From sequence record PV841871.1: 44,890 nucleotides of DNA, one strand, 5' to 3'. Below the pieces are notes generated by a model, which saw nothing but the letters and a program-made list of their open reading frames with translations, was not told the DNA's origin and made no database searches. This document shows, one piece after another, positions 17,998 through 20,041 of this stretch. The stretch is from Escherichia phage Ivi. Made by a program: the position numbers and the translations under genes. How positions within the stretch are numbered: the stretch's first letter is position 1; every line of letters begins with the position of its first letter.

Positions 17998-18027
17998 CTA
18001 AGGCCCCGAAAGGGGCCTTTTTCTCAC
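17998..18027. terminator. bidirectional intrinsic terminator; near-identical copy at 30326-30356
   Basis: AAGGCCCC-gaaa-GGGGCCTT followed by TTTTCTC. Confidence 0.8.
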
Positions 18028-18185
18028 TCACTTTTGAATGGCATTTCGTAGAAGTTAGTTAACTGACCTCGGTTACTACGTTCTGTCATTTCTTTCGAGG
18101 CCTCTTCCTTACTACCAACAGCATAAATATCAACCCACTCATCCCATTCTTCGTCATATACGCGGATTACGTATATTGTTTTCAT
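18024..18185 (-). CDS. small hypothetical acidic protein (53 aa)
   Basis: ATG-initiated minus-strand ORF at the end of the leftward island; below track cutoff. Confidence 0.3.
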   Translation of the reverse strand: MKTIYVIRVYDEEWDEWVDIYAVGSKEEASKEMTERSNRGQLTNFYEMPFKSE

Positions 18186-18192
18186 AATATTT

Positions 18193-18423
18193 TCACTCAT
18201 CAATGTTACTCCGGTACTCCCGTAACTTCTCCAGACTTTCTATTGCTTCTGCTAAGTCGGTTCCTGTGTCTTTGTGTCCGCGAAGGCCCATACACAACAG
18301 CTTCTTCAATGCGTGCTGTAGCGCCGGGTCACGGATATCGAAGGCGCGGAGCACATCATAAACATCTACTGTCATAGTGCTGCCGTGGGTATTTGTCATT
18401 GTGCGGTTGTATTTATTTGTCAC
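18193..18423 (-). CDS. hypothetical protein (76 aa)
   Basis: ORF track; part of leftward island. Confidence 0.5.
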   Translation of the reverse strand: MTNKYNRTMTNTHGSTMTVDVYDVLRAFDIRDPALQHALKKLLCMGLRGHKDTGTDLAEAIESLEKLREYRSNIDE

Positions 18424-18613
18424 TGTTAACTCTCTTAAATCGGGCTATGCCTGACTCGTTAATGCTGCCTATTTCAAAGAAGCTGCGATATTTAGGCGAA
18501 TACATTCTTACGTCGCCGTTCTCTAGGGTGACCCCTTCATATACAGCGCCTACTTCGAATCCATTTTTCTCCGCGTACGGACTCACATCGGTGCATTCAT
18601 ACATATCTTTCAT
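18413..18613 (-). CDS. hypothetical protein (66 aa)
   Basis: ORF track; start overlaps upstream stop. Confidence 0.5.
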   Translation of the reverse strand: MKDMYECTDVSPYAEKNGFEVGAVYEGVTLENGDVRMYSPKYRSFFEIGSINESGIARFKRVNSDK

Positions 18614-19740
18614 CCCAGCATCTCCGGTGAAATAGTTAAACGTGCGACCTCGCCATATTCGGCACTATAGGTAATTACATTTGCGCTACGGCCTGACATC
18701 CATCCACCGCGCGAGGCGTAGGCGTCTTTAGCCGCCAGGGTGCGGTGTTGCTCAACAATCATGTTACGGCTTTCCACAATCTTCTGATGGTGGAGGTGGC
18801 CTACGTGGGCGTAGCTGTAAACGCTTTCGCCAAATGCTTTGCGGAACTTGGCAATCATAACCGGTTCGATAGCGTCGAATCGTGCCTTATGCCCGTGGTG
18901 AAAGAACAGCGTCGTTTTGCCGTGTTGCACCATCTTGTAAACATCTGGCGACGTATCGACGAACACACGAGGCTCATTGTCGTACAGCGTACTAAACATC
19001 TCAGCTAACCAAATCATTCCGCTTTCGTCGTGGTTTCCTTGCACGATAAGCAAGCTAACATTTTTATGCTTAACCAGCGCCATACCGACAACACGGCGGA
19101 CCATACGAATCATGTAGCGGACAAGTTTCTGATAGCGAGTGTCCGCATCAAGGGCGTGACCGCTTGCAGGCGTAACGGCAACCAGACTGTCGAAGTGCGC
19201 GAAGTCGCCCAGCAGGTTAATAACTCCAGTTCCTGCATCCGGCGCTTTCTGGAACGCCGCATCGAACCAGCGAGAAAACAGGTCTTCCGCAATCTTCATA
19301 TCCCAGTCGTCGCCACTCTCGTCGGCCCAGGCCAGCATACCAAGATGGAAATCAGATACAGTGTAAAGATTGAGTAGTTTATCGTCACGTTTGGTGCGAA
19401 CGGCTTTAACTGGTACAACGGGAGTAATCTCCGACTTCATGCCTTCGATTACGGCTTTCATCAACTCGACCTGACGTTCAGCGTCAGTGTCTGTCTTAAC
19501 CCATTGCAACTTAGTGTTGCCGAACTCGTCCACAAGCGACGACGTTCCTTTAATCTTGTAGCCGTCCGGGACAAGATGGCTAACGTCACGACCGTGACCT
19601 ACGCCTTTCTTCGCCAGCTTCGCTTTACGGATACGAATAACTCGGTCTGAGATGCCGTATTTACGGGATATGTCGATAATCTTTGTTCCGGCGTTCAATT
19701 CTTCCTGTAACTGTTCGTCGGTTATTTTAATCTGGGCCAT
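18610..19740 (-). CDS. HTH domain fused to a calcineurin-like metallophosphoesterase
   Basis: N-terminal IIDISRKYGISDRVIRIRKAKL (HTH-like); phosphoesterase motifs SDFHLG, GDFAHFD, QGNHDE, FFHHGH, GHLHH; RBS GAGGAAG. Confidence 0.8.
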   Translation of the reverse strand: MAQIKITDEQLQEELNAGTKIIDISRKYGISDRVIRIRKAKLAKKGVGHGRDVSHLVPDGYKIKGTSSLVDEFGNTKLQWVKTDTDAERQVELMKAVIEGMKSEITPVVPVKAVRTKRDDKLLNLYTVSDFHLGMLAWADESGDDWDMKIAEDLFSRWFDAAFQKAPDAGTGVINLLGDFAHFDSLVAVTPASGHALDADTRYQKLVRYMIRMVRRVVGMALVKHKNVSLLIVQGNHDESGMIWLAEMFSTLYDNEPRVFVDTSPDVYKMVQHGKTTLFFHHGHKARFDAIEPVMIAKFRKAFGESVYSYAHVGHLHHQKIVESRNMIVEQHRTLAAKDAYASRGGWMSGRSANVITYSAEYGEVARLTISPEMLG

Positions 19741-19779
19741 GCTTTACTTCCTCGTGTTTAGGATTTGTCCTATACTAGC

Positions 19780-19971
19780 TCACTTCTCTTTGACATTCGA
19801 GTTGCAAGCCCAGATTAAAATAAATACCCACGGCAGCAGAACCCAGCCAAGAAACAGATTGGCCATGAATATCGCTAATTTCGCTTTATGACCCCGCATA
19901 TGGGCCACTAAAAACGGGATAAAATAAACCAAAACGATAATGATTAAGAAGAACATAGTAATACCTGTCAT
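19780..19971 (-). CDS. small membrane protein resembling the superinfection-immunity family (63 aa)
   Basis: Two hydrophobic segments; AHMRGHKAKLAIFMANLFLGWVLLPWVFILIWA; ATG 19971 after CAGGAG (the track ORF is extended upstream). Confidence 0.45.
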   Translation of the reverse strand: MTGITMFFLIIIVLVYFIPFLVAHMRGHKAKLAIFMANLFLGWVLLPWVFILIWACNSNVKEK

Positions 19972-20012
19972 GGTGTAGCTCCTGTTTGAGTTAACATTGT
20001 TGGTGTAAGTGA

Positions 20013-20041
20013 ATAGTATCCTATTATGTTGGGGTGCGCAA
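20013..20041 (-). promoter_or_regulatory. Class I promoter (TTGCGC-N17-TACTAT) driving the leftward island
   Basis: Reverse-complement match to class I consensus; AATAG-GATA-CTATT. Confidence 0.5.

Follow-up and report, generated by a model that had tools for sequence, protein, structure and literature searches.

A leftward accessory operon at the tail tube/chaperone junction of Escherichia phage Ivi, with a putative superinfection-exclusion gene and a conserved metallophosphoesterase

In the genome of Escherichia phage Ivi, five genes on the minus strand (positions 18024-20041) interrupt the rightward structural block, separating the gene for the tail tube from those for the tail assembly chaperones. 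This raises the question of what the island is and what it does at this position. The window analysed was a stretch of 44,890 nucleotides (nt; sequence record PV841871.1). An initial annotation of it had proposed an early-expressed moron cassette for superinfection exclusion, host takeover or counter-defence. The reading we favour, with a probability of about 0.55, is that of a self-contained leftward operon with an envelope protein in slot 1, a metallophosphoesterase (MPE) as its core in slot 2 and an exchangeable slot 3. The parts of the island, followed by its flanks, are:

19780-19971, minus strand: gene for an Imm-type superinfection immunity protein of 63 amino acids (aa), assigned by PF14373 and phrog_1039
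18610-19740, minus strand: gene for a T1 p16-family helix-turn-helix (HTH)-MPE protein of 376 aa, assigned by phrog_704, motifs and fold
18413-18613, minus strand: orf66, whose start overlaps the MPE stop codon (ATGA)
18193-18423, minus strand: orf76, a widespread small phage domain
18024-18203, minus strand: orf59, acidic, 58-59 aa, found in 22 phage records
20013-20041, minus strand: 29-nt promoter-like motif (TTGCGC-N17-TACTAT) heading the island, recognised by its recurrence in the window
17998-18021, both strands: bidirectional hairpin terminator common to the tail tube gene (plus strand) and the island (minus strand)
16823-17995, plus strand: tail tube protein gene, left flank (PF18906, E 5e-36)
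20150-20566 and 20572-20931, plus strand: tail assembly chaperone pair, right flank (PF08748 and PF23812), with the tape measure gene next

Judged by its sequence, the window is a Kagunavirus (Guernseyvirinae) genome. The best megablast matches to positions 16800-21000 were Escherichia Kagunavirus phages, followed by Salmonella Jerseyvirus phages, with 463 phage records matched. The junction was compared in 80 loci sampled via the tail tube protein, because loci retrieved via the MPE itself would be biased; 73 of them hold both tube and chaperone genes. The MPE gene lies at the junction in 40 of these 73 loci, comprising all 29 Kagunavirus loci (tube identity at least 87%) and 11 loci at 67-69% tube identity, including the SETP3 genome. 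The sampled Jerseyvirus-type contigs carry it there as well. In the remaining 33 loci (tube identity 65-77%), tube and chaperone genes are directly adjacent in 7, with a gap of 94-185 nt, and 5 have other content. In about 21, the junction contains no more than one or two small leftward genes with a product that starts with a hydrophobic segment, a count from a crude hydropathy screen with both false positives and false negatives. The products in these small-gene loci include an Imm-like 58-aa peptide, a 66-aa protein with a single transmembrane segment, LSGC and LAGC lipoproteins, and signal-peptide proteins of ~110-120 aa.

Both ends of the MPE-bearing islands vary. The first gene of the 40 islands encodes Imm in 27, a secreted protein of 107 or 108 aa (phrog_14165) in 11 and neither in 2. 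The distal slot holds a HAD phosphatase with a deoxynucleoside monophosphate (dNMP) kinase, an HNH endonuclease, an Ant-like protein, or orf66, orf76 and orf59, in many combinations, and these variants start at the MPE stop codon or within ~70 nt of it. The smallest island seen (L042) has only a 49-aa ORF (open reading frame) there. Elsewhere in the genome, the MPE gene was located in two related contigs (L040 and L071, compared with L129 and L153). On this comparative evidence, insertion at the tube/chaperone junction is genuine, and the fixed enzyme there is flanked by two exchangeable slots. The island is thus variable among relatives in its first and distal slots, and its MPE is fixed in the 29 Kagunavirus loci. 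The description as a moron cassette fits the adjacent flanks in 7 of 73 loci and the variable slots, and the promoter-like motif and hairpin terminator would suit it; it does not fit the MPE, which is a core gene.

All five minus-strand ORFs of the initial annotation were recovered at its coordinates, and both flanks were as it described them; the start of orf59 had to be revised. The ATG at 18185, chosen originally, is without a good Shine-Dalgarno sequence. The candidates TTG 18203 and ATG 18200 have GGAG upstream and the near-identical relative SHAK7693 (OR594180) is annotated with a 58-aa product, so the start is more probably at 18200/18203. Ratios of non-synonymous to synonymous substitution (dN/dS) against distinct alleles of related loci lay between 0.02 and 0.25 for all five genes (Imm 0.15-0.22; MPE 0.02-0.04, e.g., 79 synonymous versus 8 non-synonymous differences; orf66 0.07-0.25; orf76 0.06-0.13; orf59 0.03-0.21), which identifies them as real, constrained genes. 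The MPE gene, orf66, orf76 and orf59 overlap by 4-11 nt and therefore form one tightly packed operon. Shine-Dalgarno sequences are clear for Imm, MPE and orf66 and approximate for orf76 (AAGAGAG). GC skew flips sign across the island, as a strand switch predicts, and the GC content is slightly lower inside the island (0.476-0.509) than in the structural genes to its left (0.52-0.53).

The motif at the head of the island recurs in the window. A search for the 29-mer TTGCRCACCCCAAYATAATAGGRTACTAT with up to 2 mismatches returned three copies, at 20041-20013 (minus strand), 10847-10819 (minus) and 43526-43554 (plus), and no occurrence in 100 shuffles; a weaker copy stands at 69-97. The motif is placed 28-42 nt 5' of start codons. 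It heads the island in every Kagunavirus locus that holds this region, whether or not Imm is the first gene, and further copies precede a RusA-like resolvase cassette and the small ORFs of the rightward block. Compared with the sigma-70 consensus, TTGCGC-N17-TACTAT is a weak match (~7/12). A generic promoter scan made no call on it and reported instead ATCACA-N17-CATAAT at 20051-20023, which overlaps the motif. What had been called a class I promoter is accordingly kept here as a recurring promoter-like 29-mer in three copies, with a sigma-70 match of only ~7/12.

At the other end of the island, the proposed bidirectional terminator was borne out. The hairpin AAGGCCCCGAAAGGGGCCTT (18000-18019) has a folding energy of -16.3 kcal/mol on the plus strand and -18.8 kcal/mol on the minus strand (z -4.4 and -4.0) and is flanked by U-rich tails on both strands; the generic scan rated it as terminator-like on the minus strand. 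The whole module, ATAAAACTAAGGCCCC-loop-GGGGCCTTTT (17990-18021), has near-identical copies at 30321-30352 and 10242-10274, and all three are located at strand-switch points. A diverged copy at 36158-36190 shares 73% identity with the copy at 10242. The island is therefore a unit with a conserved promoter-like motif at its head and a strong hairpin terminator at its end.

The RusA-like resolvase gene (phrog_3007, E 4e-36) forms a single-gene leftward cassette at 10270-10791 (minus strand), with the 29-nt motif at 10819-10847 and a terminator of the island type at 10242-10274. In the window, its neighbours are a Hoc-like gene and the spanin gene; in SHAK7693, they are the portal and head-morphogenesis genes. 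This difference in genomic position indicates that the cassette has moved. Since the motif is also found 5' of the relocated gene in SHAK7693, it travels with cassettes. The presence of the same motif at a resolvase cassette points to co-regulation of the island with DNA-metabolism functions.

Another repeated element of the window is a GC-rich sequence of ~115 nt, present in two copies with 81% identity (10943-11052 and 43243-43362, plus strand). Both copies lie directly 3' of a TTGACT-N17-TAAGCT site with a TGn extended -10 (~10914 and 43219), and a terminator-like hairpin at ~11125-11150 follows the first copy. The element is conserved in 180 Kagunavirus/Jerseyvirus records, mostly in unannotated intergenic DNA, and has no Rfam match. 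Its consensus fold consists of a 5' hairpin and a long stem, with compensatory double changes in 5 of 33 pairs (10 variants). We take it to resemble promoter-proximal antiterminator RNAs such as HK022 put. If it is put-like, it could explain read-through of terminators such as that at 18000-18019.

The promoter-proximal gene was initially described as encoding a superinfection-immunity-like peptide with two transmembrane segments, and this description was supported. The product matched PF14373 with 51.6 bits (gathering cut-off 27.9; E 8.7e-14), covering 42 of 42 profile positions, and phrog_1039 'immunity to superinfection' with E 1.4e-23. Kyte-Doolittle analysis identified two hydrophobic segments, at residues 1-17 (2.54) and 30-46 (1.88), with the basic loop HMRGHKAK between them. 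Similarity to annotated T-even imm genes in tblastn searches was weak (JS98, 41.5% over 41 aa, E 7e-3). Superinfection exclusion by the slot 1 protein is plausible, because relatives hold unrelated envelope proteins in this slot, the class expected of such factors.

The second gene encodes the largest product of the island. The MPE aligned with phrog_704 nearly from end to end (E 9.3e-163; residues 5-375, profile positions 3-389 of 390), a full-length match. Its scores against the Pfam models Metallophos (20.7 bits, cut-off 27) and Metallophos_2 (18.4 bits, cut-off 21.5) were below gathering, so membership of the binuclear metallophosphoesterases rests on motifs and fold. All five motifs (DxH, GD, GNH(D/E), H and GHxH) are present. 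Among 72 diverse homologues, residues D130, H132, G178, D179, N236, H237, H282, G314 and H317 are invariant and H182, D238, H284 and H315 are at least 90% conserved. A serine/threonine phosphatase of the PPP type (lambda NinI type) was considered and rejected: the PPP signature is GDxHG / GDxVDRG / GNHE, and the MPE reads SDFHLG, GDFAHFD and GNHDES, with no DRG.

A single-sequence AlphaFold model of the MPE, with a mean predicted local distance difference test (pLDDT) score of 40.8, was discarded for an alignment-based AlphaFold2 model with a pLDDT of 92.4. The latter has three N-terminal helices at 8-44 (HTH-like), a hairpin at 61-85, a helix at 87-104 and the phosphoesterase core at 119-376. 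Foldseek comparison of this model with the PDB yielded 139 matches at E ≤ 1e-3, and all of the 50 listed have the metallophosphoesterase fold; the best were Mre11, the PolD DP1 exonuclease and Rv0805 (E about 1e-8, TM-score about 0.4). A PDB search with the family profile gave marginal matches to a GerE/LuxR-like domain at the N-terminus and to T. maritima SbcD/Mre11, and a PDB sequence search with the single protein returned only noise. On the predicted structure, the fold assignment is certain, and from it and the gene contexts described next we infer the substrate.

The MPE family is large (4573 representatives at 50% clustering), with a homologue in 2004 of 50,697 phage records (about 4%), in Guernseyvirinae, Dhillonvirus, T1-like Drexlerviridae, SP6-like podoviruses, N4-like roseophages and Campylobacter myoviruses. 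The HTH-metallophosphoesterase fusion of the initial annotation is nothing special: thousands of family members share this architecture. T1 p16 was equated with the homologue by the annotators of Sazh and Era103, and the Ivi protein shares 46% identity with the T1p16 homologue of Sazh. In the podovirus Era103, the MPE, HAD phosphatase and dNMP kinase genes follow each other in the Kagunavirus order (47%, 55% and 44-49% identity), flanked by 5'-3' exonuclease and endonuclease genes on one side and a DNA ligase gene on the other. The homologue comes after dCTP deaminase and thymidylate synthase genes in an N4-like roseophage, after helicase, VRR-NUC and Dam genes in T1-like Sazh, and between the lysis genes and terS in Dhillonvirus. 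These contexts, the motif-sharing RusA-like cassette and the HTH-like N-terminus make a nuclease or phosphodiesterase that acts on DNA, in DNA and nucleotide metabolism, more likely than a signalling or anti-defence enzyme.

The MPE gene also has a mosaic history. Its 3' 760 nt (18610-19377) share ~75% DNA identity with Dhillonvirus (e.g., L005 BF9, 3501-4268) up to the stop codon, and the alleles within Guernseyvirinae fall into classes of 55%, 60%, 81-89% and 93-98% protein identity on otherwise similar backbones. Together, these two observations indicate repeated allelic exchange.

The three distal genes are less informative. orf66 occurs in 25 records, all Kagunavirus, with no family match in Pfam, PHROGs, NCBIfam or PADLOC. 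The orf76 domain was identified in 773 phage records of many genera, with the conserved pattern KY...DVYDVL.AF...PA.QHALKK.LC.GLRGHKD, and in phrog_2452 (E 9e-37) and other larger PHROG families it corresponds to the C-terminal ~70 residues. It gave no Pfam or PDB match, including by profile search, and its homologues in a search of 5.8 billion proteins carried no Pfam domain. A suspected resemblance to DUF3310 was not confirmed, as 0 of 16 family members matched the Pfam model at E ≤ 10. Its match to C-terminal parts of PHROG families raised the possibility that orf76 is a truncated remnant; this was rejected in view of its conserved stand-alone 76-aa form in Kagunavirus and Jerseyvirus, of selection and of the 773 records. 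orf59 occurs in 21 Escherichia/Kagunavirus records and 1 Shigella phage record, with identities of ~81-97% and 60-67%, and had no family match. NCBIfam gave 0 matches for all five island proteins.

As to timing and counter-defence, the presence of the 29-nt motif before the rightward small-ORF block suggests pre-replicative expression of the island; the RusA-like cassette with the same motif is the other basis for the putative early timing. A counter-defence role is speculation, because no defence or anti-defence model was matched: at E ≤ 1, PADLOC-DB gave 0 families for all five proteins. According to the ApeA preprint, Guernseyvirinae are sensitive to this sensor of deoxydinucleotides and Dhillonvirus is resistant; this sensitivity does not discriminate, since the resistant Dhillonvirus also carries the MPE.

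Taken together, these data are best explained by a leftward operon that was inserted at the tube/chaperone junction and is inherited throughout Kagunavirus. Transcription would start at the phage-specific 29-nt motif and end at the bidirectional terminator that would also close tail-tube transcription. Slot 1, next to the promoter, would be occupied by a cell-envelope protein, here a T4 Imm-type two-helix peptide of the inner membrane, which most likely blocks DNA entry by superinfecting phages. The conserved MPE in slot 2 is most likely a Mn2+-dependent DNA-directed nuclease or phosphodiesterase that serves phage DNA and nucleotide metabolism, with host-DNA breakdown coupled to nucleotide salvage, or DNA end processing, as its probable roles. 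Slot 3, which appears to be translationally coupled to the MPE stop codon, would be the exchangeable accessory position, filled in Ivi by orf66, orf76 and orf59. Within this scheme, we infer the timing of expression, the exclusion function and the MPE substrate.

Several points weigh against this explanation. The assignment to the Imm family is silent on which phages are excluded, three of the five genes are without an assignable function, and the promoter motif is a poor sigma-70 match. As for the enzyme, its fold matches the cyclic-nucleotide and glycerophosphodiesterases Rv0805, GpdQ and YfcE about as well as nucleases. The model ends with the core at residue 376 and shows no Mre11-type C-terminal capping domain, and no Rad50/SbcC partner is annotated in SHAK7693 or beside the MPE gene in any locus examined. 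Our literature search found no characterised member of the T1 p16 family. Finally, the only transcriptome of a Kagunavirus, that of K1B4 (PMC12645636), places imm in a 'late' group, together with DNA polymerase and methylases and apart from capsid and tail genes. That experiment was poorly synchronised, with samples from 5 to 120 min, and was not taken as timing evidence; at most, its grouping separates expression of the island from that of the adjacent structural genes.

Other functions of the MPE were weighed against the same evidence. It might be a Mre11/SbcD-like end processor for recombination-dependent replication or concatemer processing, and the island a displaced piece of the replication module. 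Mre11 as the top fold match, the marginal profile match to T. maritima SbcD/Mre11, the resolvase cassette under the same motif, the location of the MPE gene elsewhere in L040 and L071, and a dN/dS of 0.02-0.04, indicative of a core function, all agree with this. We nevertheless consider it rather unlikely, given the lack of a Rad50/SbcC partner and capping domain in the material described above, a phage that already has an exonuclease, a gp2.5-like annealing protein and a resolvase, and MPE neighbours in other phages that are as often nucleotide-metabolism enzymes as recombination proteins. A role in end healing is less probable still. The enzyme would then be a 2',3'-cyclic phosphodiesterase/3'-phosphatase that mends ends cut by abortive-infection nucleases, acting with the HAD 3'-phosphatase and P-loop kinase that adjoin it in sibling phages. 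T4 Pnkp/Rnl and bacterial Pnkp (CthPnkp), whose phosphatase domain is a metallophosphoesterase, are the analogues. The order MPE, PseT-like HAD and P-loop kinase is indeed conserved between Kagunavirus and Era103, where an ATP-dependent DNA ligase comes next, and a PseT-like HAD gene also follows the MPE gene in L068. However, the Ivi window is without that phosphatase and kinase, the kinase is of the phrog_139 dNMP-kinase type and not a polynucleotide kinase, and no ligase is annotated in SHAK7693. The HTH-like domain suggests binding of duplex DNA, and no PADLOC or anti-defence match was obtained.

Degradation of defence signals is a very unlikely function. In this case, the MPE would hydrolyse the cyclic (oligo)nucleotide messengers of CBASS, Pycsar, type III CRISPR or Thoeris, and the island would be an early counter-defence cassette. 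The cyclic nucleoside monophosphate phosphodiesterase Rv0805 matches the fold as well as the nucleases do (E about 5e-8), and a promoter-like motif of its own and a variable accessory tail would suit such a cassette, whereas a family that is near-universal in several virulent phage groups, lies among DNA- and nucleotide-metabolism genes and carries an HTH-like DNA-binding N-terminus would not, and no known anti-defence family was matched. For the distal small ORFs, selfish cargo without function, left behind or carried along by homing endonucleases at a recombination hot spot, is hardly credible. HNH endonuclease genes do occupy the same slot in several relatives and orf76 does match only the C-terminal part of larger PHROG families, but all three ORFs have dN/dS values of 0.03-0.25 across alleles, and in Kagunavirus and Jerseyvirus orf76 exists as a stand-alone 76-aa protein whose N-terminal KY motif is invariant, its domain occurring in 773 records.

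Within the operon explanation, a more specific combination can be put forward tentatively, and we would not expect all of it to hold at once. The tube/chaperone junction of Guernseyvirinae-like phages may be a dedicated leftward-transcribed 'exclusion slot', into which at least five unrelated envelope families may have been swapped beside the promoter (the Imm-type peptide with two transmembrane segments, the single-transmembrane 66-aa protein, two lipoproteins and the secreted ~110-120-aa family). The MPE may be the nuclease that supplies host DNA to nucleotide salvage, together with the co-travelling HAD phosphatase and dNMP kinase. The 29-nt motif may be read with a phage-encoded factor, because it is too conserved, and too poor a sigma-70 match, for a plain host promoter.

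Further observations concern the surroundings of the island. In the annotation of SHAK7693, the rightward block comprises small ORFs, lysis genes and structural genes, the leftward block comprises replication genes, and a few short leftward cassettes sit among the structural genes; neither a phage RNA polymerase nor an integrase is annotated. This record (vB_EcoM_SHAK7693) is filed as Autographiviridae/Kayfunavirus although it is a colinear Kagunavirus-type siphovirus, so its taxonomy looks wrong. The divergent region of 178 nt between imm and the chaperone genes (19972-20149) contains a promoter-like TTAACA-N17-TAGTAT on the plus strand (19991-20019) and a small hairpin on the minus strand (20062-20079). 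Given the promoter-like sites on the plus strand, the tail chaperone and tape-measure genes may have their own promoter and not depend on transcripts that read through the island. Both chaperone ORFs are covered by phrog_15027 (259 aa), as expected of a G/GT chaperone pair with programmed frameshift. Opposite the scaffold and major capsid genes, the minus strand contains a 529-aa ORF (11952-13541) that probably arises as a side effect of codon composition.

Phages of Kagunavirus and Jerseyvirus, which are common in sewage, are under development for use in therapy, biocontrol and synthetic biology; Bas70-76 were added in the BASEL completion paper, which also mentions phage CM001 as a chassis for engineering. 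An exclusion gene among the tail genes matters for the design of phage cocktails, since related phages that co-infect may block one another. The slot structure shows where cargo can be swapped with the virion genes untouched, and an activity assigned to the T1 p16 family would provide the annotation for thousands of genes. Current concepts are unchanged. The island is a tidy instance of an element type already known, and the literature search returned no functional study of it.

Among known systems, T4 Imm (PF14373) is the closest counterpart of the slot 1 product: both are small two-helix membrane proteins, linked by a Pfam match above the gathering score and by weak similarity to T-even imm genes. 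T4 Imm is ~83 aa long, whereas the Ivi protein has 63 aa and is encoded in a siphovirus, beside tail genes. The superinfection-exclusion envelope proteins of virulent siphoviruses, the T5 lipoprotein Llp and Cor of T1/phi80, resemble slot 1 in kind, as it holds a membrane, lipoprotein or periplasmic protein beside tail genes; the slot 1 proteins are without sequence relationship to either, and the comparison is drawn from general knowledge. The MPE matches the T1 p16/phrog_704 'DNA repair exonuclease' family over its full length, a name that is an annotation and not a tested function. With Mre11/SbcD and PolD DP1 it shares the binuclear fold and the five catalytic motifs, including the GDxxH motif II, but at a TM-score of ~0.4 and 10-13% identity, without a capping or OB domain and with an N-terminal HTH-like domain in place of their extra domains.

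Like the morons of lambdoid phages, the island carries variable cargo and is flanked by genes that are directly adjacent in 7 loci; its promoter-like motif and hairpin terminator may make it an autonomous transcription unit as well. It differs from them in that its core enzyme is fixed in the genus, its composition is barely distinct from that of the neighbouring genes (GC 0.476-0.509 versus 0.52-0.53), and lysogenic expression is not expected: the phage appears virulent, since the annotation of SHAK7693 includes no integrase and Kagunavirus counts as lytic in BASEL. The nearest equivalent is the island of SHAK7693, with 98.3% identity over 18000-20149 and the same five genes in the same position, strand and order, labelled 'superinfection immunity protein', 'DNA repair exonuclease' and three hypothetical proteins. 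The deposited Kagunavirus and Jerseyvirus islands (e.g., SHAK7693, Snoke MK931441, Salmonella phage SS10 and SETP3) differ only in their combination of distal genes. Many deposited genomes already contain the island in annotated form, and it belongs to a known type of phage element.

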